Shown: one piece after another, positions 7,666 through 44,900 of the stretch
Layout of the letters: every line of letters starts with the position of its first letter
How positions within the stretch are numbered: the stretch's first letter is position 1
Source: Somniosus microcephalus
Taxonomy: Eukaryota
Assembly (NCBI GenBank): GCA_052327205.1
Contig: CM126218.1
Coordinates: 44,578,001-44,642,000, forward strand
Direction of reading: 5' to 3'
Length of the DNA: 64,000 nucleotides
Program-made: the position numbers and the translations under genes
Notes under the pieces: generated by a model
Seen by the model: the letters and a program-made list of their open reading frames with translations, nothing else
Told to the model about the DNA's origin: nothing
The model's database searches: none

Positions 7666-7878
7666 TGTGGTAAACCACTGTTTGTATTCCACTGTGTACA
7701 TGCCTGTACATGCCTCGGCTGACTCCTCCCACGAATCCAGGTATAAAGGTGACTGCTCCACAGCCCCTTTGTATTCTGGACCGGTCGATCACTCGAGGCA
7801 CACCTTCATTCTCTTGTTAATAAAAGCCTGTTAATTACTCGCTTAATCTCAGTCTTTTGAGTTATTGATAGCGCATCA
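7666..7878 (+). repeat. 5' LTR of Gypsy element 1
   Basis: TGTGG...CATCA with TATAAA and AATAAA; differs from the 3' LTR by 2 substitutions and a 2-bp indel. Confidence 0.95.
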
Positions 7879-7931
7879 ATTTTGAGAAGTGCATATTCTG
7901 CACAACCTGCCTCGCCATCCTTGGCTGTGTT

Positions 7932-9670
7932 GTGGAACACGGAGTCATCGGCCCCGACCCCGACCGGATGCGTCCCCTTATGGAACTCCCACTGCCCCAC
8001 TGCCTCAAGGCCCTGAAGAGGTGCCTAGGGTTTTTCTCTTATTACGCCCAGTGGGTCCCCTACTATGCGGACAAGGCCCGTCCGCTGATCAAGTCCACCT
8101 CTTTTCCCGTGACGGCAGAGGCCCGCTTAGCCTTCCACCGTATCAAGGAAGACATTGCCAAAGCCACCATGCACGCAGTGGACGAATCCATCCCCTTCCA
8201 GGTGGAAAGCGACGTGTCCGACTTTGCCCTGGCCGCTACCCTCAATCAGGCGGGGAGACCCGTGGCCTTCTTTTCACGAACCCTCCAGGGCCCGGAGACC
8301 AGACACTCCGCTGTTGAGAAGGAGGCCCAGGCTATTGTGGAGGCTGTGCGTCATTGGAGGCACTACCTGGCCGGAAAACGATTTACCCTGCTCACTGACC
8401 AGCGTTCAGTTGCTTTCATGTTTAACAACAAGCAGAGGGGCAAAATCAAAAACGACAAGATCTTGAGGTGGAGAATCGAACTTTCCACCTACAATTACGA
8501 GATCTTGTACCGGCCCGGGAAGCTCAATGAACCCCCGGATGCTCTATCGCGTGGCACCTGCACCAGCGCGCAGATCGATACACTGCGGGCCCTCCACAAT
8601 GACCTCTGCCACCCGGGGGTCACCAGGTTCTTCCACTTCATCAAGGCCCGCAACCTGCCTTACTCCATTGAGGAGGTCAGGACCATGACCAGGAACTGCC
8701 AAGTCTGCGCTGAGTGCAAACCGCACTTTTACAGACCAGACAGGGCTCACCTGATAAAAGCCACTCGCCCCTTCGAGCGCCTGAGCGTTGATTTTAAAGG
8801 CCTCTCCCCTCCTCCGACCGCAATGTGTACTTCCTCAATATTATTGATGAGTACTCCCGTTTCCCGTTCGCCATCCCCTGCCCGGACATGACCAGTGCCA
8901 CGGTCATTAAATGTCTGAACGACCTCTTCACCCTGTTCGGTTTCCCCAGCTATATCCATAGCGACCGGGGCTCATCGTTTATGAGCGACGAACTCCGTCA
9001 GTACCTGCTAGCTAGGGGTATTGCCACAAGCAGGACCACCAGTTACAACCCCCGGGGGAACGGACAGGTGGAAAGAGAGAATGCGACAGTTTGGAAGGCC
9101 GCCCTGCTAGCCTTAAAGTCTAGGGGCCTTCCGACCTCCCGCTGGCAGGATGTGCTCCCCGATGCGCTCCACTCTATTCAGTCACTGCTCTGCACTGCCA
9201 CTAACGCCACCCCTCATGAGAAAATGTTTGTCTTCCCAAGGAAGTCCACATCGGGGACATCGCTACTGCCATGGCTGACGTCCCCAGGGCCGGTCCTACT
9301 GAGAAGACATGTGAGGACCCATAAAACGGACCCCCTGGTCGAGAGGGTCGACCTCCTCCACGCCAACCCCCAGTATGCTTACATTGCGTACCCGGACGGG
9401 TGGCAGGACACAGTCTCCATAAGAGACCTCGCACCCTCAGGGGCCGCAGTAACCCACCACCCACTACCACCCCCCCCGCCACGATCCGATATCCAGCCCC
9501 AGCAGACGGCAGGCCTGGGCCCCGCGACCCACTCGACATCTACGAGGACTACACACCAGTGCCCCAGCCTACGCGGGACTCGACGCCGGAAGCTTCACTA
9601 CCCCTGCCGTCGCCACGTTGATCACAGCGGCAGACAAGACCTCCGGAGAGACTCCAATACACTAACTTTT
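7932..9670 (+). pseudogene. pol remnant: RT connection, RNase H and integrase, frameshifted near 8800
   Basis: ORF 7932-8891 (ESDVSD, EKEAQAIV, TDQRS, DALSR, HHCC zinc finger) and ORF 8825-9769 (IIDEYSRF, SDRGSSF, GNGQVER). Confidence 0.9.
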
Positions 9671-9714
9671 AATACACTTCACCCCGCCGGACTCAATTTT
9701 AAACAAGGGGTGAA

Positions 9715-9925
9715 TGTGGTAAACCACTGTTTGTATTCCAGTGTACATGCCTGTACATGCCTCGGCTGACTCCTCCCACGAATCCAGGTATAAAGGTGAC
9801 TGCTCCACAGCCCCTTTGTATTCTGGACCGGTCGACCACTCGAGGCACACCTTCATTTTCTTGTTAATAAAAGCCTGTTAATTACTCGCTTAATCTCAGT
9901 CTTTTGAGTTATTGATAGCGCATCA
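9715..9925 (+). repeat. 3' LTR of Gypsy element 1
   Basis: Direct repeat of 7666-7878, preceded by the PPT and followed by the TSD. Confidence 0.95.
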
Positions 9926-15542: not shown

Positions 15543-18500
15543 TTATATATTCAGTCTTTGGGGATGCTTCCTGACCCTTTCTGGATAGCGCCTTTCCCGA
15601 GTGTCTCGCTCTTGGTGCGGGGGCGATTCTGGCACCCTGTCGTCGGTTGGGTCATCAGCTTCCGATGCTACTGTTTCTGGGGTAGATGCGACCTGTACGT
15701 CGGGTTCCTCACCAGGTACGTATGGGCGAGGCATGGGGTTGACTTGTTCCTCTGACTCTAGGATCTGGTCAGCATGGCGTCTCACGATGTTCTCCCCAAC
15801 GTCCACTGTGTACATTAGTGGGCCCTGCCGTGTGCATATCGTTCCTGGCTGCCATTTTTCTGTTCGGTAGTCACGGGCCAAGACTGGTTGCCCTACATTG
15901 AAGCTCCTTGTTGGCTTCTCATGGATGTGCTGGAATTGCTTACTCTCAACATCTCTTCGTACGTTTGGTCTGCGCAAATCCAGGCGAGATCTTAACCTTC
16001 GGTTAAAGAACATCATGGCCGGGGCCTGGTTGGTGACTGCATGTGTCGCATTCCGGTAGGCGAACAGGAAATTGTCCACCTTATGCTGCAGCGGAATGTT
16101 GTCATTGTACATAGCCTTTATTGCCTTCTTAAAGGTTTGTACGAACCTCTCAGCCAATCCATTTGTGGCTGGATGATACGGGGCGGATGTGTAATGCCTT
16201 ACCCCATTCTTCTTCATAAACCTCCGGAACTCTTCTGACACAAACTGTGGTCCGTTATCGGAGCAAATCTGTTCTGGCAAGCTGTTCCTGGCAAAAATGG
16301 TCCGTAGGACTGCAATAGTTTTCTCCGTGGTGGTGGAGGACATTTTGATGACCTCAGGCCATTTTGAGTGCGCATCCACGGCTATTAAAAACATTGAGTC
16401 CATGAATGGACCAGCAAAATCAATATGCACCCGTTGCCATGGAGATGAGGGCCACTCCCATGGGTGTAGAGGGGCATGTGGTGGTGCATTTTGGAATTTC
16501 TGGCATCCTGAGCAGCTCTTGGTCAGGTCCTCGATTTGTTTATCGATTCCCAGCCACCACACATAAGCCCTGGCAAGGCTTTTCATTTTTACCCCTCCCA
16601 GATGACCCTCATGAAGCTCATTGAGCACTCTATCCCTTAACTTGGGTGGAATTACCACTCGGGATCCACACATCAAGGTCCCCCGGCACACTGACAGCTA
16701 TTCTCTTCTTGTCGAGAATGCTGGCAACAGTGAGTTGACATGTGCTGGCCATCCCTTCACTGTCAAATCATATACCCGAGACAGTGTCGGGTCATTTCGG
16801 GTCTCCTTTTCGATACAAGCGTTAGTTACCGGTAGGTATTCAACTATAGTCGAATGGAATATTTCGACAGGATCCACTGCTGGTGCTTCCTCCGCAGTAG
16901 GCAGTGGCAGGCGTGATAGCCCATCAGCATTTCCATGCTGCTTCGTGCCCTTATATTCAATCTCATAGTGGTGCGCCCCTAGAAAGAGTGACTATCTTTG
17001 TAGTCGTTGCGCAGTCATCACCGGAACGCCCTTCTTCGGATTAAAAATGGAGACAAGAGGCTGGTGTTCAGTCAGCAAGGTGAATTTCTGCCCGTGCAGA
17101 TAGTGATTGAACTTTTTCACTCCCCACACTAGGCTGAGGGCCTCCCTCTCAATCTGGGCGTAGTTACGTTCGGCTGAGGTTAGTGATCGTGACGCAAAGG
17201 CTATTGGCCTCTCTGAGCCGTCCGAGAATTTGTGCGACAGCACCGCTCCAATGCCGTAGGGTGACGCGTCACACGCCAACCGAATTGGTGGTGCTGGGTT
17301 GAAATGGGCCAATACCTCTTTCGATGTGATTAGTGTTTTGCTCTTTTGGAAAGCTCGTTTACATTCGTCACTCCACTTCCATGGCACTCCAGTTTGCAGT
17401 AGGGTGTTCAGTGGGTGTAGTATTGTAGACAAATTTGACAAGAACTTATGGTAGTAGTTTACCAGCCCGAGGAACGACCTCAGTTGTGACACGTTTTCAG
17501 GTGCTGGAGCCTTGACTACTGCCTCAATCTTTTCTGGGGACTTATGTAACCCCTCTTTATCGATAACGTGGCCACAATACTGTGGTAAACCACTGTTTGT
17601 ATTCCACTGTGTACATGCCTGGACATGCCTCGGCTGACTCCTCCCACAAGTCATAGTATAAAGGTGACTGCTCCCCAGCCCCTTTGTATTCTGGACCGGT
17701 CGACCACTCGAGGCAGACCTTCATTCTTTTGTTCATAAAAGCCTTTAGTTACTCTCTTAACTCTCAGTCTTTTATGAGTAATTGATAGCGCATCAAATAC
17801 GAGATCTGTTTTTTAAAAAACTCGCATTTGGGGCGGTTAGCTCGGAGCCCATATGCCTTCAATCTAGTGAGCACCTGCTCCAGGTTGGCGAGGTGATCAC
17901 TGTCATTTTCGCCCGTGACCAGGATGTCGTCCAAATAACACTGGGTCCCTGGGATCCCTTGCAGGACTTGTTCCATTGCCCTTTGCCAAATAGCCAGAGC
18001 TGATGCTACCCCGAATACCAGCCGGTTGTATTGGTAGAGACCTTTATGGGTGTTGATTGTGAGGTATTTTTTTGATGCTTCTTCTACCTCGATTTGCAGA
18101 TATGCCTGGGCCAAATCAATCTTAGTGAAGTGTTTCCCTCCAGATAGCGAGGCGAAAATATCTTCAATCCGCGGAAGTGGATATTGCACGGTGTGAAGGA
18201 CTGGGTTCACCGTTACCTTAAAGTCCCCACAGATGCGAACCTTCCTTGGTTCCCCAGGCGTGCTGCTCAACGACTTTTTCATCACAGGGACGATGGGTGT
18301 AGCCCACTCGCTCCAGTCTACCTTGGACAGTACTCCTGAATGTTCCAAACTCTCCAGCTCTGCTTCGACGGCTGGGCGGATCGCATAAGGTACTGGTCTG
18401 GCCTTAAAAAATTTTGGGCTTGCGTTTTCTTCGATTTTAATTGTTGCCGTCATGCCTTTTAGTGTTCCGAGTCCTTGCTGAAACACTTCTTGCGCGTCGG

Positions 18501-19690
18501 TTAGGATCTTTGACAGTCGCCCAGGTGTGACGTCGTCATCCTTTTTGGCAGCCACAGTCAGTGCTTGTATGGAATGCCAATCCAGCTGTAATTTCCGGAT
18601 CCATTCACATCCCAGTAATGGTGGTCCTCCATCTTGCAATACATACAGGTCTAGTTTTGGCGCTTTCTCACCGTTATATATAACGGTCACCCTCATTTTT
18701 CCTTTGGGGTAGACTTTTTGCCCCGTGTACGTCTTCAAAATAATTTTTGTGTCTCAAGGGTATGTGTGAGAATAGCCGCTCGTAGTCCCGTCGGTTTATG
18801 ACTGTTAGGGCTGATCCTGTGTCCAATTCCATTTTTACCTGGACTCCTGCTATCTTGAGAGTGACCCAAATGGTTCGGTGATCCTCCGTTTTGATCACAT
18901 TATGCAGTTTCAGACAACTCAGCTCCCTGCTTTCGGAGTTGGTATCACTCTTTTGTTCGTCTGAACTATTCTCCGTCACCTTATGTACCTTCTTGTACTT
19001 TTCTTTTGGAGATTTCTTATTGCTGGTTTTCTTTCCTGACCTGCAGACTCGTGCTATGTGTCCTACTTTTCCACACTGTCTGCACACTTTGTCTTTGAAC
19101 CAGCAATCATTGTGGTCGTGTGTTGTTCTGCCGCAGCGATAGCACTTCTCTGTTCTGTATGACATTTCGTTTGTGCCATATTCTTGCGGTCTCTGTTGTA
19201 TCTCTGCAGCGCCCTGTGCTGCTGCTTCATATGATACCGCAATGCTGAAAGCCTTGTCCAGCGTAAGGTCCTTTTCAGATAAATGCCGTTTCTGGGTTCC
19301 TTCACTTTGAAGCCCACACACAAACTTGTCCCTTAAGGTATCTGCCAGTCCCGTTCCAAACTGGCAGTGTTTCGATAGTTTGCGCAGTTCTGTAAAATAT
19401 TCAGCATTGCTTTCATCCTTATGCTGGTTCCGTTTGTGAAACTTGAATCTTTCTGCTATCAGCAGCGGTGTGGGGTTTAAATGTTCCTGTAGTATCGTCA
19501 CTATGTCTCCAAAACTCTTTTCCACTGGCTTCGCTGGGGTTACTAGATTTCATAATAAGCCATACGACTTTGCACCCATTAAATTTAACAATACCGGCGC
19601 TTTCTTGTCATCTGACACCTCATTCGACATATGTCGTCCAATCTTCGACTTCATTGTCAAATGCGGTGATAATGCCACTCTTCGGCATTT
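15543..19690 (-). pseudogene. gag-pol of Gypsy element 2, broken by stops, frameshifts and a solo LTR
   Basis: ORFs 18674-19525 (gag/PR), 17764-18738 (RT), 16992-17654 (RNase H), 15543-16691 (integrase: HIDFAGP, SDNGPQF, NGLAERF). Confidence 0.92.
17581..17795 (+). mobile_element. Solo LTR of the element-1 family inserted in the RT of element 2
   Basis: Homologous to 7666-7878; TG...CA ends; 5-bp TSD AATAC (17576-17580 / 17796-17800). Confidence 0.95.
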
Positions 19691-19736
19691 TGGGTGTGGT
19701 TTAAAATGGCTTCTCCCGCGCTTTCCTTCCTCCCCC

Positions 19737-19882
19737 GCTGCTGCTAACGCCGCTCTCGGCGGTCCTCGTGGCAATGGCGGCGCCCTGTGGGTTTCGCGCG
19801 CTTCTCCTGCGCTGCTGCCAACGCCGCTCTCGGTGGTCCTCGTGGCAATGGCGGTGCCTCACGGGTTTCTGCGCGTCTCTCT
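19737..19882. repeat. Two-copy ~74-bp GC-rich tandem repeat in the 5' leader of element 2
   Basis: gctgctgc(t/c)aacgccgctctcgg(c/t)ggtcctcgtggcaatggcgg at 19737 and 19811. Confidence 0.85.
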
Positions 19883-20904
19883 CCCTCTCCTCGACGCTGC
19901 TCGGCCCCTGAACACCGGCTGCGCCCTGTGCGCTCTGCCCTCTCTCCGGTTGACGCTGCTCTGCCCTTTGCTGTGCCGCTCGGTCGGGCTCTAGCCCACC
20001 ACTGTCCGGGAAGGGTCTGCGCACTACCTGTTGCCAGCCGTTTCGCTGGACCACCGCGACTGGAAAGCCAAGCCTGGCCCTCAACAGCCTCCCCCGCAAT
20101 TCTCGAGTCTCTGCTGGATGACTGGGCGGTTGCCCGTGGTCGACGCCTGTGTCTCTGGCCTTGACCTCCAGTCTACTGGTCTCCAGGAACGAATCCCTGG
20201 GAGGTGATGCAGAGTTGCAGGTAGGATCGAATTTGCCTCGTCGCCAATGTTGTGTCCGTCAGTAGTAAGACACAAGACTGCAGGAGAACGGTACAACAGG
20301 TGTTTACTCAACGTGGCTCACTCTGGAACTGAACTGTATAGATTACTACTCAGTGCTATATACCGGTGAGGTCACTGCCGGTACTACAGTGTACATGAGC
20401 TGTAAAAAGTAGTTCCCCCCTTAAAGGTATATACATTACACTTCCCTCAGAGGGTTGTGAATCTTTGGAATTCTCTACCCCAGAGAGCTGTGGAGGCGGA
20501 GATAGACAGATATTTGAGCTACAGTGGAGTCAAGGGTTATGAGGAGCAGGCGGGAAAGTGGTGTTGAGGCCAAGATCAGATCAGCCATGATCTTATTGAA
20601 TGGCAGGGCAGGCTCGAGGGGCCGAATGGCCTACTCCTGCTCCTATTTCTTCTGTTCTTAAACACAAAACCCATCAAACTCAGATGGCTAAAATCCATAT
20701 TCTTCAACCTAAAAAGGAAACTGAGAAGAGCTCCTTTGATCTTCAGTTTCAAATGTTCTTTTGAACAGTCTAAGTGGAGCTGGCTTGTCCTCTTCTGGAA
20801 TTCCCTTTCTTCAATCATTTGTTTCCATATTATGAGATGAGTTTCTGTGGGGAGAAGTGCACCCATATTAAGAATCAATTAAAAGAAACAATTTTCGACA
20901 CTTT

Positions 20905-31170: not shown

Positions 31171-31541
31171 TACAAGATATTTAACATCTTACTAGTGGCC
31201 TTGCTCTTGATTATTATATGTTTGTTGAAACAGGCTGAGCGGGGTGGGGGGATGGGGTGGTTACAATGCCATCTTTGGAACAAGCAAAAATAACAGTACT
31301 TGTAATATTGTTTGTCAAAGATATCAGTGCTTTTCTTTTGAGGAAGAAAGAATGGTATACATTACCATACTGTTAGCATTACCCATTAATTTTCAATGGA
31401 CTGGAAATGTTAACCATTAATTTAAATTTACTAGGTGTTAGAGAGGGAAGGAAAGATTGGATTAAGAGAGAGAGGAAAAAAAGATAGAAATGGAAAGTAA
31501 GAAAAAATAATGTGCCAGAGTATGTTGCGTTCAGTGTAACA

Positions 31542-31740
31542 CAGCCGTCACAAAGCTCTACGATATCCTCGGAGCTGCGTCTGCAGCCACAGAGAACAAG
31601 CTCAAGAAGGCATATCTCAAGTTGGCTAAGGAATACCATCCAGATTAAAAATCCAAATGCTGGAGACAAATTTAAAGAAATAAGCTTTCCCTATGAAGTT
31701 TTAGCAAATTCAGAGAAGCGAGAACTTTATGACCGTTATG
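31542..31740 (+). pseudogene. DNAJA2: Processed DNAJA2 fragment (J-domain only, 1-nt insertion, no poly(A))
   Basis: Translates [63 protein letters not shown], matching my recollection of vertebrate DNAJA2 (TKLYDILG...[35 protein letters not shown]); flanked by a 29-bp direct repeat. Confidence 0.9.
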
Positions 31741-32527
31741 CCAGAGTATGTTGCGCTCAGTGTAACAACTCAAATCACCTATTAGTTATTATGATTTTTT
31801 TTCCCAAACTGATTTCTAAATGAGGTAGAGCATGAACTTTAGAACCTTTTTTCAGAGAAGGTTTAGCAAGAAAGCAACTTTCAAGTGCTTATTTTTTACT
31901 TTAAGGAGAAGGCTGAGAGAGACAGGGGGAGATGATTTCAGCATCTGCCTTGTTTTTGGTTAATTGGGGACACCAGTAACATTAACCCATCAGTTGTGCA
32001 CAGTGCAAAAAAAAGTCAGTGTAAAATGGACTGCTGATTTGCTATCACCTGTTTTACACAATTGCACAAATTCAAAATTAACCCACAGTCATAGACAAAC
32101 CAATTTTAATTAGTGGCAAGTGTTTTGAATTTAAAAACAATAATTTTTCACAGATTTATTTATGCAGCTGTGATATCTATTTTTAGATCTAGCCGCAGTA
32201 ACACTGTGCTTTAAACTGCATGAAATGAGTCCAGGAGTTGATGACTGGGAATTCCATAAGGCTAATGGGCTCTAAAGCAGTCTCTGATAGGTCGGGAGAG
32301 GCAAGCAAATGTGTGGCAGGGAGGGAGGAGGAGCTTGAAAGCAACTAGGTAAGCTCAAGTTACATTTCTTTAGCTTCCCTCCCTCCCTCTCAATGCTGCT
32401 AGACTCTTGCTCCCTCCACTACACTGATAAACCACGCCCCCCCCAATGCTAGGGACCCCGTGCCCTCATCAAGGCTTCCAACCTAGAGGTTCACCCTCTC
32501 ATGTTTTCCAAACCACAGAATCACAAT

Positions 32528-37923: not shown

Positions 37924-40881
37924 TCAATTATAAGTCAGTCTCTCTGCAGGCTTCCTGACTCGGTCCGGATAACGCCTCGGTGGTGCAGTAGTTTCTGGTG
38001 GTGTAGCAGGTTCTTTTGGCAAGGCTGATTCGGCTTGAATGCCAGTGTCGGGTTCATCGGTTTCCAGTATCACCGGATCGGAGGTAGATACTATGGGTAT
38101 CTCTACTTCATCATTAGGCGTATAGAGTTGTGGTGTAGGTTGTCCCTTTTCGGATGACTCTATGATTTGGTCAGCATGGCGCCTTATTATGCTTTCTCCG
38201 ATGTTCACGGTATACATCAGCGGTCCTAGTCGTGTGCAGATAGTTCCAGGCTGCCATTCCTCGGTACGGTAGACCCGGGCCAAAACTTGTTGACCTATCT
38301 GGAAGGTTCTAGTTAGCCTTTCATTCATGCCTTGAAATTGCCGGTTCTCCACGTCCCTTCTGATGTTTGGCTTGATCAAATCCAGCCGGCATCTTAGGCT
38401 TCTATTGAAGAACATCATGGCGGGAGTTTGGTTTGTAACCATATGTGTTGCATACCTGTATGCAAACAAGAAGTTATCCACCTTATGCTGAAGTTTTATG
38501 TCTTCATTACCCATGGCCTTTATGGCCTTCTTGAAGGTCTGGACAAACCTTTCAGCCAATCCATTGGTGGCGGGATGGTATGGGGCGGACGTGTAGTGCT
38601 TAACCCCATTGTTTTTTAAGAACTTCCTGAATTCTTCGGACACAAATTGCGGTCCATTATCAGAACAGATCTGTTCAGGCAGCCCATTCCTGGCAAATAT
38701 GGTCCTTAATACTGTGATGGTTTTTTCCGTGGTGGTGGAGGACATCTTTATTACCTCCGGCCACTTGGAGTGTGCATCAACCGCGATTAAGAACATTGAG
38801 TCCATAAATGGACCAGCAAAGTCGATGTGTACCCTTTGCCAGGGAGATGAGGGCCACTCCCATGGATGTAGAGGGGCTTGTGGTGGAGCGTTTTGGACCT
38901 TCTGGCATCCTAGGCAGCTCTTGATCATTTCTTCGATGTCTCCATCGATACCTGGCCACCATACAAACGCCCTGGCTAGGTTCTTCATTTTCACTCCACC
39001 CAGATGCCCCTCGTGAAGCTCCTTTAGAACTTTATCCTGGAGTTTGGGTGGAATCACCACTCTGGATCCACACATCAAGGTTCCTCGGCACACTGACAGC
39101 TGTTCTCTTCTTTGCGAGAATGCTGGCAACAGTGGTTCGCCATGTGCTGGCCATCCCTTCACTGTTAAATCATAGACTCGTGAGAGAGTCGGGTCATTTC
39201 TCATTTCCCTTTCAATGGCAGAATTTGTTACTGGTAGACATTCGACTATGGTAGAGTGGAAAATCTCCACTGGGTCTACGGTAGGTGCTTCTTCTACCGT
39301 TGGCAACGGTAGGCGCGATAAACCGTCAGCATTCCCATGCTGTTTTGATCCTTTGTATTCTATGTTATATTGGTGTGCCCCTTGAAAAAGGGACCACCTC
39401 TGTAGCCTTTGCGCTGTCATAATGGGAACACCCTTTTTAGGGTTGAATATGGAGATGAGGGGTTGATGGTCAGTCAACAAGGTAAATTTTTGTCCGTGTA
39501 GGTAATGGTTGAATTTCTTCACTCCCCATACCAGGCTGAGTGCTTCCCTGTCGATTTGGGCATAGTTACGCTCAGCTGAGTTCAATGAGCGTGACGCAAA
39601 AGCTATCGGCCGTTCCGAGCCATCAGGGAATTTATGCAATAATACTGCTCCTACGCCGTAAGGGTATGCATCGCACGCCAGTCTGATTGGCAGTGATGGG
39701 TTGTAATGAGCCAAAACTTCTTTGGACGTGATCAAGCCTTTGCATTTATGGAAGGCACGTTTACAGTCTTCGCTCCATTTCCAAATTACTCCTGTTTGTA
39801 GCAGTTCATTAAGAGGGTGTAGAAGAGTTGATAAATTCGGTAAAAATTTATGACAGTAATTTATTAATCCCAGGAACGACCTTAATTGTGAAACATTTTC
39901 AGGTGCTGGGGCTTTTATGACCGCTTCAATTTTTTCAGGTGACTTATGCAACCCTTCCTTATTAATTATGTGGCCACAATATGATATTTGATTCTGGAAA
40001 AATTTGCACTTGGGGCGATTTGCTCGTAGGCCCCGTTCTCTCAGCCTAGTGAGCACCTGCTCCAAATTGGCAAGGTGCTCGTTGTCGTTTTCTCCTGTTA
40101 CAAGGATGTCGTCTAGGTAGCATTGAGTCCCCGGAATCCCTTGGAGGACTTGCTCCATAGCTCTTTGCCAGATAGCTGGAGCGGATGCTACTCCGAAAAC
40201 CAGTCGATTGTACTGGTAGAGGCCTTTGTGTGTATCCATCGTGAGGTACTTTTTAGAGGCCTCTTCAACCTCCATCTGTAGATATGCCTGTGCCAAGTCA
40301 ATTTTGGTGAAACGTTTCCCTCCGGATAGTGAGGCGAAAATATCTTCTATCCTCGGAAGAGGATACTGTACCGTGTGAAGGACCGGGTTTACAGTCACCT
40401 TGAAGTCTCCACAGATGCGAATTTTTCTCTGTTCTTCAGATTTATCATTATTCAATGTTTTCTTCATGACTGGGACGATGGGTGTTGCCCACTCGCTCCA
40501 ATCTATTTTGGATAATACGCCTGCCTTTTCCAAATTCTCCAGCTCTGCCTCGACTGCTGGATGAGTTGCGTATGGCACTGGTCTTGCCTTAAAAAACTTG
40601 GGAATTGCCGCATCTTCCACTTTTATTGAGGCTGTGATGCCTTTCAAGGTTCCTAGTTTCTCTTGAAACACTTCTTTGGCGTTGGCCAAGATGTCTTTTA
40701 ATCGTTCAGGTATGACGTCATCATCGTTTTTTTCCTTACTGGTCACCGTCAGTGCCTGAATGGAATGCCAGTCTAAACGTATTTTCCTGATCCATTCACG
40801 TCCCAACAGCGGTGGACCACCACCTTGTAGAACGTATAAATACAACTTTTGTATTTCCTTGCTGTTGTATACAACAGGCAC
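37924..40881 (-). CDS. Gypsy Pol segment RT-RNase H-integrase (985 aa open; upstream gag-PR disrupted)
   Basis: WATPIVPV, YPLPRIED, YLDD, LACDA, TDHQPL, ADGLSR, HHCC, HIDFAGP, SDNGPQF, NGLAERF. Confidence 0.9.
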   Translation of the reverse strand: MPVVYNSKEIQKLYLYVLQGGGPPLLGREWIRKIRLDWHSIQALTVTSKEKNDDDVIPERLKDILANAKEVFQEKLGTLKGITASIKVEDAAIPKFFKARPVPYATHPAVEAELENLEKAGVLSKIDWSEWATPIVPVMKKTLNNDKSEEQRKIRICGDFKVTVNPVLHTVQYPLPRIEDIFASLSGGKRFTKIDLAQAYLQMEVEEASKKYLTMDTHKGLYQYNRLVFGVASAPAIWQRAMEQVLQGIPGTQCYLDDILVTGENDNEHLANLEQVLTRLRERGLRANRPKCKFFQNQISYCGHIINKEGLHKSPEKIEAVIKAPAPENVSQLRSFLGLINYCHKFLPNLSTLLHPLNELLQTGVIWKWSEDCKRAFHKCKGLITSKEVLAHYNPSLPIRLACDAYPYGVGAVLLHKFPDGSERPIAFASRSLNSAERNYAQIDREALSLVWGVKKFNHYLHGQKFTLLTDHQPLISIFNPKKGVPIMTAQRLQRWSLFQGAHQYNIEYKGSKQHGNADGLSRLPLPTVEEAPTVDPVEIFHSTIVECLPVTNSAIEREMRNDPTLSRVYDLTVKGWPAHGEPLLPAFSQRREQLSVCRGTLMCGSRVVIPPKLQDKVLKELHEGHLGGVKMKNLARAFVWWPGIDGDIEEMIKSCLGCQKVQNAPPQAPLHPWEWPSSPWQRVHIDFAGPFMDSMFLIAVDAHSKWPEVIKMSSTTTEKTITVLRTIFARNGLPEQICSDNGPQFVSEEFRKFLKNNGVKHYTSAPYHPATNGLAERFVQTFKKAIKAMGNEDIKLQHKVDNFLFAYRYATHMVTNQTPAMMFFNRSLRCRLDLIKPNIRRDVENRQFQGMNERLTRTFQIGQQVLARVYRTEEWQPGTICTRLGPLMYTVNIGESIIRRHADQIIESSEKGQPTPQLYTPNDEVEIPIVSTSDPVILETDEPDTGIQAESALPKEPATPPETTAPPRRYPDRVRKPAERLTYN

Positions 40882-40890
40882 CCTTATTTT

Positions 40891-41918
40891 TCATTTGGGG
40901 TATACTTTCTGCCCCGTATATGTTTTCAAGATAATGGATGTGTCTTTTAAAGGTATATGTGGAAATAGCCGCTCGTAATCCCGTCGATTTATGACGGTTA
41001 GAGCTGATCCTGTATCTAGCTCCATTTTAACTGGGGACCCTGCTATCGTGAGGGTAACCCAAATGGTCTGGTAATCTTCTTTGGCAATTACATTATGTAA
41101 TTTGAGACAGCTTAGTCTCTTGTTTCCGGAGTCGCTATCGCTCTTCTGGTCTTCGGAGCTACTGTCCGTCATCATTTGTACCTTTCTGTACTTTTCTTTA
41201 TTGATTTTTTTTTTTTCCTGTCCGTGGATTTTTTTTGTCCAGATCGGCATACCCGTGCAATGTGTCCAATCTTTCCGCATTGCCTGCATCCTTTGTCCTT
41301 GAACCAGCAGTCCCTCTGGTCATGGGTGGATCTGCCGCAGCGATACCATCTCTCGAAACCCTGTGTCATTTCATGGGTGCCGAAGTCCTGTGTCTTTTGT
41401 TGTATCTCTGCAGTTCCTCTTGCGGCTGCTTCGTATGATACAGCCATACTGAAAGCCTTGTCCAGTGTTAAATCTTTATCAGAAATCAGCCTTTTCTGTG
41501 TTCCTTCACTTAGGAGACCGCAGACGAATTTGTCTCGAAGATAATCTGCTAGTCCTGCCCCGAATTGGCAGTGCTTTGATAGCTTTCTTAATTCGGTGAG
41601 GTAATCAGCGTTACTTTTATTCTTGTGTTGATTCCTCTTGAAGAATTTGAATCGTTCCGCTATCAGCAGCGGTGTTGGGTTTAAGTGCTCCTGTAGGGTA
41701 TCAACAATTTCTTTAAAATTCTTGTCCTTTGGTTTGGCTGGAGTGGTTAAGTTTCGTAACAGCCCGTATGTCTTTGCGCCCATTAGATATAGAAGTACTG
41801 ACGCTTTTTTTTCATTTTCTATTCCATTTGCGGTGCAATATACCTCCACTCTTTCCACATATGTGGTCCAATCCTCTATATCGTTATCAAAAGCATCAAT
41901 TTTGCCAGACTTAGGCAT
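40891..41918 (-). pseudogene. gag and protease of element 3 (frameshift in an A-run near 41210; nonsense codon at 40891)
   Basis: MPKSG...DWTTYVER, CRQCGKIGHIARVC knuckle, ELDTGSA protease site. Confidence 0.88.
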
Positions 41919-44900
41919 CCTGGAAAAAGATGGCGCTTCCCGCGCTTTTCTTTCTTTTCTGCAGAAAAGATATGGCACTTCCTGCGCTTCCCCGCCGCTG
42001 CTGCCGATGACAACGCTGTTTTCCGCGGGTTTCCCTTCTTTTGATTTATTTATTTACAGGTGGAGACTCGTTCCCGCCGGATTCTCTCTGCTAGGTCTGA
42101 ACGCCGACCTACTTGCAGCACCGGCCGTCTCCCGAGTGCTCCCTCCCCGTCTGTTACTGCTTGCCTCCGCCTTCGCAGCTTGGCCTAGCTGCAGAGCCAG
42201 CCGCTGGAGCCCCAGCCCGACGCCCAGGAAGGATTATTGCAGTACCTGCCACCAGCTCGGCTAGCTGGTGAAACCACAGCTTATTCTTTTTCTTGCTTTT
42301 CTTCGACTTTGGACGCCAGAGGAATCGATGTCCTTCAGGTGCTGCCGAATTGCAGGTAAGTCCGTTTCCAATTCGTCGCCACTGTTGTGTCCGTGTGTTA
42401 ATAGAGACACTGAAGACTGGAGTTGGTTTCACAGGTGTTTACTAAACAAAGTCTGGAGGGGAACTAACTGATACAACACAATATACAGGCTTATATAGCC
42501 CGAGTGGCCATTACAGTACACAGGGGGCTCTTAAAGGCACATACACTACACAGGAGGAGCCTGCAGCAGCTGTGGCCAGTGCCAGACCCCGAGCTGCCTC
42601 CAAATTCGACGAGGCTTCACTGTAGGCATTATTGGATGGGGTTAGGGCCCACAGGGAGGTCCTCTTCCCTAGGTCAGGGAGGAAGAAGCCTCCCACTGAG
42701 ACCAATGCTGCATGGATGCAGGTGTCAGCAGATGCCAACTCGCTGGGAGTCACCAGAAGAACATTGGCATTACATCTCTAACTCCTTCCTTTACTCCCCC
42801 ACAGTACCATCCAGGGCCCCCGTCCTCACTGTGGTGGAGGAAGAGGCTGTGTAGCCAGACTCCTCAGAGGAAGCTCCAACCTCTGAGGGCGCAGCGTCAG
42901 CAGAAGTAAGCGCACCCAGCACCAGCGCAGACACTCACACCTCGGGGGGACCTTCGGGACATAGCGTAGTGTTGTCACCTGGTGTTTCACAGCTCACAAG
43001 TGAGCCTCAGCAGATTCTGGAGACAGTGACAGCAGTGGAGAGTCCTCGTCGGAGGACGCAGGACTCTGCCAGCTCAGCTCAGCTGCGCTGCATGTCGACC
43101 CTCTGCCTCTGGGTCCATCCGCAAGAGAAGAGGTGATGGCTCTCCATGCACAGATGCAGAAGTCTCTGGCAGGTTTTGTCTCCAGGGTCGCTGCGAGTGT
43201 GGAGCGAATGGAGGAATCCATAGCGACCATGAGCAGAGCCTTTGTGGAGTCATTGGTGCATGAATGCATCCCCATGGAAAGGTTGGCAACCTCCATGCAG
43301 GAGATAACTCGCCAGGGTACGGAAAACATGGTGAGTGCTCATAAGAGAATGACACCTCTTGAGGAGCATTGGCCATCTGTTCAACAGAGAAACCAGATCT
43401 TCATGGAAGTCCTTCTGAGTAGGACTGCCAGTGCAGAAACGGGTCCCACTGGCCCCCTAAAGCGCAGCAAGGTGCTCTCAAGCCACTTCCAAACACTGGC
43501 CCCTTCTGGCCTGTGCAGCTTCAGGTGAGTGAGCAGCAGCCTGGTGCTCCTGGTGCTCATCGTGCTGTTCCTGGTTCTGTTGCTGCCACCTCTGCTGTTG
43601 GAGATCCTCTAATGCCAGGAAGGGAAGGTACCAAAGGCCTCCCATGCTTCTGGCAGATGCCTCCGTTGAGGGGGCGCTGAGTTAGGGTGGTGAGAGGGGC
43701 TTCCCAGGAGCTCACACTGGAGAAGTGTGTGAGGCTCCAACTTTCTGCAGCTGTTCCTAAGGCTTCAAACAGTTCCCCCAAGCCTTGATCAACAAGGTCC
43801 TGCAGCCTGCAAATGCTGCCTATTTAAATCTCTTCAGCCCTCAGCGACCTGCTGCTGCAAGCAAACAAGCCAGCTGTTTTCACGCCAGCTCTCATCGGCG
43901 GGGTTCCCCGCAGGCGTGTTTCATGTGGGGAAAGCCCCAAAGTCGCAACGGCCCCGGAAAATCTTCCTTAACAAGGTGATCATTGGTGATTAGTGCTCCA
44001 ACGAGCAGTCCCGCCAGCGGCGGCCGGGACTGAAGCGGGGCGCGTGGAAACGGCGGTCCGAAAGTCGGACGGGGTGGGGAATCAGGCGGGGGGGTGGTCC
44101 CGACCCGCTTTTTCACCGATGTTCGGCCCCCGGCCGCATGAAAAGCCGCCCGACGGCGGCCAGAAAATCGGGGCCATAGAGTACAAAAGCGTGGAAATTA
44201 TGAAGAACCTGTATAAAACACTGTTTGGTCTCAACTGGAGTATTGTGTCCAATTCTGAGCACTGCACTTTAGGAAGGATGTGAAGGCCTTAGAGAGGGGG
44301 CAGAAAAGATTTACGAGAATGATTCCAGGGATGGGGGACTTCAGTTGCGTGGATAGACTTGAGAAGCTGGGGTTGTTCTCCTTAGAGCAGAGATGGTTGA
44401 GAGCAGATTTGATAGAGGTGTTCAAAATCATGAGGGATCTGGACAGAGTAGATAGAGGGAAACTGTTCCCATTAGCAAAGTGGTCGAGAACCAGAGGACA
44501 CAGATTTAAGGTGGTTGGCAAAAGAACCAAAGGCGACAGAAGAAAAATCTTTTTTACGCAGCGAGTGGTTAGGATCTGGAATGCACAGCCTGAAACGGTG
44601 GTGGAGGCAGCCTCAATCATGGCTTTCAAAAGGGAGTTGGATGAGCACCTGAAAGAAAAAAATTTGCAGGGCTACGGGAAAAGGGCGGGGGAGAGGTGCT
44701 CTTGCAGAGAGCCGACATGGGCTCGATGGGCCGAATGGTGTCCTTCTGTGCTGTAACCATTGTATGATTCTATCCACTCTCCTTATAAAACATTTTATTA
44801 GCTGACTTACATTAAGAAACACAACAGGAACATTGCACATTTTTCATCCATCGTACTTCAGTGTGCCTGACACACTTCACTGTCCTTCACACCACTCGCG

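Follow-up and report, generated by a model that had tools for sequence, protein, structure and literature searches.

What kind of event leaves a short, spliced piece of a host mRNA in a genome with a long direct repeat around it and no poly(A) tail behind it? The question is raised by a locus in the window, the 64,000-nucleotide stretch of the Somniosus microcephalus genome analyzed here (contig CM126218.1, positions 44,578,001 to 44,642,000). Positions 31543-31740 of its forward strand correspond to c.12-208 of DNAJA2, spliced across two introns, in the sense orientation, tailless and dead. The insert consists of part of exon 1 (c.12-78, 31543-31609; parent C6:228001987-228002064), exon 2 (c.79-138, 31610-31670, with an extra T at 31645; parent C6:228007556-228007615) and part of exon 3 (c.139-208, 31671-31740; parent C6:228009531 onward), where it ends without poly(A) at what we describe below as a 3' hot spot. 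The parent is an intact, 9-exon gene on C6 encoding 412 amino acids, named DNAJA2 on its matches to PDB 7zhs and to NCBI and UniRef entries; 359 of the 412 residues are identical in sturgeon DNAJA2. The insert matches three separate exons of this gene, and the introns between them, of ~5.5 kb and ~1.9 kb, are missing at 31609/31610 and 31670/31671. It represents 197 nt of a template of ~2.2 kb and scores as DnaJ in two frames, the extra T causing a frameshift and a stop; of its 14 substitutions per 197 nt, seven are non-synonymous and seven synonymous. A sequence-only reading of the window had proposed a J-domain fragment copied from spliced mRNA, without poly(A) and not as a poly(A)-primed L1 retrocopy, and had named an intronless parent as the finding that would speak against it. 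The two exon junctions crossed by the insert, its tailless end at c.208, the lack of a poly(A)-primed L1 signature and the introns of the parent bear that proposal out. The window locus is a real, functionless, tailless retro-fragment.

The insert is flanked by a 29-bp target-site duplication on the forward strand, with a left copy at 31513-31541 and a right copy at 31739-31767 whose first two bases, TG, overlap the 3' end of the insert. The copies are identical at 28 of 29 positions with a spacing of 226, as had been claimed earlier, and they are the sole pair matching at 28/29 or better at 100-400 bp spacing within the window. That the 29-mer might be part of a dispersed repeat, the other objection raised by the sequence-only reading, fails because the 29-mer is confined to these two places across the 6.4-Gb genome. 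The single mismatch, a T at 31530 in the left copy, is a lineage-specific change; organism A, a relative, has C there, like the right copy, which indicates that the duplication was perfect when made. Contigs of organism A from two studies, which differ by 3-4% here, extend across both junctions with the site filled, and the insertion is therefore older than the split from organism A. No junction skipping the insert was found among four runs, two of which (X6 and X7) match the window exactly, may come from the same sample and are not independent, and no empty site was found among paralogous repeats of the locus. At the 5' joint there is no microhomology, and a single C at 31542 (forward strand) does not match parent c.11, being either an extra base or a substitution. 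At the 3' joint the parent reads TTATG|GCG, and the TG at 31739-31740 is thus common to insert and repeat. The microhomology proposed earlier is therefore present, but by itself a 2-nt overlap is weak evidence of priming; TG lies at the lower bound of the 2-18 nt complementarity reported for tailless retropseudogenes and is near chance. The target itself reads ATG|TGCCAG, and neither an A-rich, L1-like target (TT/WAAAAWW) nor an A-rich priming site is seen.

Seven spliced DNAJA2 fragments were found in the genome, and these represent four events: the window copy (c.12-208, 29-bp duplication), a C7 pair with shared flanks (C7a and C7b, c.37-203), a C3 copy present as three segmental duplicates (c.105 to ~197-206, 22/27-bp duplication) and a single C7 copy (c.100-202). 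Their 5' ends are scattered (c.12, 37, 100 and 105), and all four 3' ends (c.208, 203, 202 and ~197-206) fall within 13 nt of a ~2.2-kb mRNA, for which the chance under uniform ends is ~1e-6 to 4e-6. Nothing beyond c.208 was recovered in DNA searches with exons 3-4 (7/7 candidates scored), exon 6 (1/1) and exon 8 to the 3'UTR (1/1), or in a whole-protein search, which alone covered exons 5 and 7; such family searches pick up short fragments less readily than searches with DNA do. Scanning of 577 kb for duplications of 16-60 bp, with an upper limit that missed the long RTE duplications described below, gave no further flush insert of a host RNA.

Several other features were noted. One C3 DNAJA2 fragment is interrupted at L105-L106 (C3:10.964-10.972 Mb) by 7.3 kb of inserted sequence with a CR1 tail at its end, and this clean CR1 insertion has a duplication of at most ~3 bp. 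Comparison of the C3 segmental duplicates revealed no indel series. L081-L100 (C3:11.23-11.43 Mb) contains a 92.4-kb tandem duplication at 99.6% identity with a 22-23 bp minisatellite; the duplication may have arisen recently or may reflect a haplotype artefact of the assembly. At L063:1201-2078, perfect 22-bp direct repeats lie 857 bp apart around mostly non-repetitive DNA.

In the C7 pair, the DNAJA2 piece lies head-to-head with a 108-nt piece that has many relatives in the genome. The source of this piece is the PCMTD1 3'UTR, ~1.2 kb after the stop codon and before the first AATAAA; the PCMTD1 C-terminus has 99% identity to one UniRef entry, followed by Chiloscyllium, Hemitrygon and Amblyraja at 87-91%. 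A 1951-nt PCMTD1 query gave 28 non-parent matches, 26 of which end at 1582-1600 and represent 25 events, the other two being upstream pieces of two hot-spot loci. All 25 events end within 19 nt, ~270 nt before the first AATAAA. The copies are 44-212 nt long, tailless and 0-20% diverged, with flanks that are unrelated except in the C7 pair, and the oldest of them share ancestral bases, which indicates that production was long-lasting. Duplications of at least 7 nt were seen at 1 of 26 copies, and that one is weak; 3-bp duplications occur at 7 of 25 against 10% of controls (p=0.011), and no target base bias was detected at 24 sites. At L200, the sole PCMTD1 site that could be compared with an empty copy of the repeat, ~10 bp were lost. 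An inversion at L201/L202 lies 3' of the main PCMTD1 piece and was not counted as twin priming. The 5' ends of the copies also recur, with three at 1379-1382, three at 1529 and six at 1482-1494 (L173/L186, C7:124.185 Mb), and possibly represent reverse-transcriptase pause sites or discrete RNA ends. The PCMTD1 pieces cross no splice junction, and we infer their RNA origin from the pattern that they form and from the C7 chimera. This chimera (L002/L003; C7:77.04 and C7:280.29 Mb) joins PCMTD1 and DNAJA2 pieces through 22-23 nt of filler with their 3' ends facing outward, and lies inside a low-copy repeat family (at least 40 matches), its two loci being 82% alike over 828 bp. That pieces from both hot spots are joined at one site points to shared machinery. 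Long duplications, on the other hand, occur in 2/4 DNAJA2 events and in 0/24 PCMTD1-only events (p=0.016), making two machineries possible. When compared directly, the two hot spots have no likeness in sequence or fold.

Comparison with other host RNAs revealed that tailless copying is common in this genome, and that only certain mRNAs have sharp hot spots. Family searches for TCTP, GAPDH and EF1A, which have low sensitivity for short fragments, found only gene exons or weak matches and no hot spot, and a 904-nt EF1A DNA query recovered paralogous genes, a single fragment of 90 nt and short matches resembling repeats, again with no hot spot. This makes mRNA abundance alone an inadequate explanation. 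EF1A is represented by five intron-containing genes on different contigs (L215-L219). 7SK (gene at C9:24.81 Mb; L239-L257) has at least 10 pseudogenes, most of them 5'-complete and of the structure described by Noll et al., without long duplications. Eight of ten 7SK copies are tailless, 3'-truncated at scattered positions (nt 106-265) and without a flush duplication. Truncation at defined source positions was therefore observed in 4/4 DNAJA2 and 25/25 PCMTD1 events and not in 7SK.

Which of the resident elements could have supplied the reverse transcriptase? CR1 elements in this genome carry octamer tails; a long upstream match was found at 1/33 of their ends against 3/66 controls, and none of 44 scored >9. 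According to the available text of PMC4245944, CR1/L2 duplications peak at 3-5 bp. Such short duplications, or none, are seen at most PCMTD1 copies and not at the window site, and a 29-bp duplication is typical of none of the CR1, RTE and Tx1-like families here. The sequence-only reading had proposed CR1, L2 or Penelope machinery, or break repair; the non-L1 signature that it relied on stands, whereas CR1 copies rarely have long duplications, and a motif scan for Penelope found none. The frameshift, the unmatched base at the 5' joint, the recurrence of the 3' end in other copies and the existing description of such fragments as tailless retropseudogenes had escaped that reading. Some resemblance to CR1 tails was seen at the DNAJA2 hot spot, where c.192-208 (31724-31740, forward strand) weakly and only suggestively resembles the octamer tails, with no CR1-like hairpin; PCMTD1 has a weaker resemblance. 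In tail-mimic tests, which were a post hoc idea involving 28 comparisons per gene, c.208 was the joint-best CR1-tail match among ~2200 positions of the DNAJA2 mRNA, and the site was in the top 0.6-8% of windows at 16 nt against four CR1 tails; the PCMTD1 site was in the top 1% at 60 nt against a SINE tail and in the top 4-5% at 22 nt against two CR1 tails. The same scans gave no match of either hot spot to RTE or L2-GTT ends, and against six Tx1-like ends 2/54 values were <=0.025, at different sites. The window also contains LTR-retrotransposon coding regions at 7872-9769 (+), 15543-20258 (-) and 37924-42053 (-), the last with an open 988-aa pol frame having RT, RNase H and integrase domains.

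The hot-spot pattern is well supported as an observation, and from it we infer a mechanism. We propose, and give an even chance, that the reverse transcriptase of a LINE, probably one of the CR1/L2 type, primed inside the DNAJA2 mRNA at a preferred site and not at poly(A). A DNA 3' end in CA would have paired with UG at c.207-208, cDNA synthesis would have run for ~197 nt before stopping, and the cDNA end corresponding to the 5' end of the insert would have been attached, with no homology, to the opposite side of a break with a 27-29 nt stagger, whose fill-in would make the duplication. The enzyme may be drawn to certain host mRNA sites, perhaps because they mimic a LINE 3' tail, and the mRNAs concerned would act as weak, accidental SINE masters. 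The CR1/L2 type appears favored because of the class-wide 3-5 bp signature and because pieces from both hot spots went into a single break; the lack of target base bias and the 3-bp duplications of the PCMTD1 class fit it. The long duplication at the window site is an exception and not the rule of its class; the break there would have been unusually staggered. A broader version, which we advance tentatively and would sooner expect to fail than to hold, is that stringent CR1/L2 LINEs of sharks routinely retropose host mRNAs from internal, tail-like sites, that PCMTD1 and DNAJA2 have been accidental SINE masters for tens of Myr, and that priming of two different mRNAs can start from opposite ends of a single break. 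If true, the hot spots would amount to a natural map of LINE-protein recognition and would show how SINE tails arise from host RNA.

Similar hot spots could form if the RNAs ended there through cleavage or decay and reverse-transcribed patches were used to repair double-strand breaks, as in class 2 TSIPs or endonuclease-independent insertion, in which case the hot spot would be a property of the RNA and not of enzyme recognition. The bases lost at L200, the two templates and filler of the C7 insertion and the absent target consensus are as expected from patching, and in PCMTD1 the region concerned is well folded (z -2.6 over 121 nt), with a T5 run at its end. Patching of this general kind also seems to occur here, based on the 7SK copies. 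However, the DNAJA2 site lies mid-exon with no unusual or stable fold in sliding analyses, and no Rfam RNA was found at either hot spot, so that neither a snoRNA nor a Pol III transcript within the PCMTD1 UTR is supported. Moreover, class 2 TSIPs lack duplications in the available text of PMC5110952, whereas the window site has a perfect one of 29 bp and C3 has one of 22/27 bp. We consider RNA ends and patch repair possible, though unlikely. Less likely still, in our view, is that the staggered cut was the work of an RTE or Tx1-like endonuclease and that the reverse transcriptase of the same LINE copied DNAJA2, PCMTD1 being served by a different one. The clade names of both families are our assumption, that of RTE based on a motif in a family where an RVT_1 domain was found. 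Among 27 closed copies of the best 30 RTE copies, 14 have no duplication, 10 have 6-12 bp and three have 59, 85 and 185 bp; among 29 Tx1-like copies, which are old and have crude boundaries, 18 have none, 10 have 8-16 bp and one has 61 bp. Long duplications are likewise present in two of the four DNAJA2 events, but none of RTE falls at 13-58 bp and none of Tx1-like at 17-60 bp. Of the short RTE duplications 7/10 start T|A, whereas the window site is G|T and has no RTE-like 3' tail, neither hot spot consistently resembles RTE or Tx1-like 3' ends, and both hot spots are represented at the single site of the C7 chimera. We noted that the three RTE copies with long duplications, L018:7282-8535 (C6:228.053 Mb; 85 bp), L150 (59 bp) and L157 (185 bp), are far above the published peak of 10-12 bp, and that the Tx1-like LINE (L259-L287) is abundant, its copies ending AAGAG-T/G-AGA without poly(A).

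The DNAJA2 fragments could also be partial copies of one earlier dead retrocopy, either that at the window site or one since lost, from which they inherited their 3' ends. The other three events do nest within c.12-208, and all four arose before the parent itself changed at c.129 and c.189. The window copy and C7a also share R29L (c.86 G>T) at a residue invariant in 86/86 scorable of 111 homologues, which hints at a common dead intermediate. Nevertheless, C7b carries A at c.86, a CpG site, the flanks of the window locus are absent from every other copy, and the 25 PCMTD1 events, whose ancestral bases are shared by age group and not by flank, would go unexplained; we therefore regard inheritance of the ends as very improbable. 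It is harder still to credit an ordinary poly(A)-primed L1 retrocopy whose 3' part was lost later, even though two older, near-full-length RPS3A processed pseudogenes sharing a 5' flank exist in this genome (L123, C25:24.89 Mb; L124, C5:205.68 Mb). This is because the duplication directly abuts c.208; a deletion after the insertion would have destroyed that arrangement, which already contradicts such an origin. There is also no TT/AAAA target and no 3'-anchored DNAJA2 copy.

The window locus itself is dead DNA, and its interest comes from the hot-spot pattern to which it belongs: about thirty short, tailless copies of two host RNAs, those of each RNA ending at its own internal spot. What drives retroposition outside mammals is described as unresolved in the available text of PMC5131818, and 25 independent copies from one 19-nt UTR window in a CR1-rich shark genome provide a handle on template choice by non-L1 LINEs. 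UTR fragments of 45-210 nt would be missed by retrocopy pipelines that need exon-junction alignment, as such pipelines are described in the accessible part of PMC13320880. With dozens of dated, nearly homoplasy-free insertions per hot spot, the copies are also possible phylogenetic markers for sharks. Searches of the accessible literature found no prior report from sharks.

Among known systems, judged from the available texts of the reports cited, LTR-mediated partial retrocopies (Tan et al. 2016, PMC5131818) are likewise partial, tailless and sometimes chimeras of two genes; unlike in those, no flanking LTR element was seen at the window insert and the PCMTD1 flanks are mutually unrelated. 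Stringent CR1/L2 LINE/SINE pairs (PMC4176376, PMC4316615, PMC5470649) resemble our copies in their fixed 3' end, variable 5' truncation and short or absent duplications. They differ in that the template here is a single-copy host mRNA with no demonstrated LINE-derived tail; stringent LINEs are described as needing a cognate stem-loop (PMC4176376), and CR1 as limited or poor at copying host RNAs (PMC5470649). Classical L1 pseudogenes, or class 1 TSIPs, have poly(A) and a TTTT/A target, neither of which is seen at the window site. Class 2 TSIPs and endonuclease-independent L1 insertions (PMC5110952, PMC1920257) share with our copies the lack of poly(A) and of an L1 target and, with the sister copies at L200 and C7, small target deletions and filler; they lack duplications, however, and the portions of those reports available describe no recurrent RNA end; with its duplication, the window locus is not of class 2.

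The closest likeness is to the tailless retropseudogenes of Noll et al. 2015 (PMC5322556), which the available text of that report records from therians, anole and maize and ties to relaxed L1. These are also derived from RNA, 3'-truncated at defined positions and without oligo(A), mRNA sources are allowed among them, and 29 bp lies within their 8-35 nt duplication range. For their 3' complementarity of 2-18 nt, the near-chance TG is the only candidate here. They are unlike the shark copies in their A-rich TT/WAAAAWW target, the shark target not being A-rich, and most sister copies here have duplications of 0-3 bp; in addition, our host is a shark and the hot spots lie inside protein-coding mRNAs. 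The window insert is a variant of the tailless retropseudogenes, a class already described.
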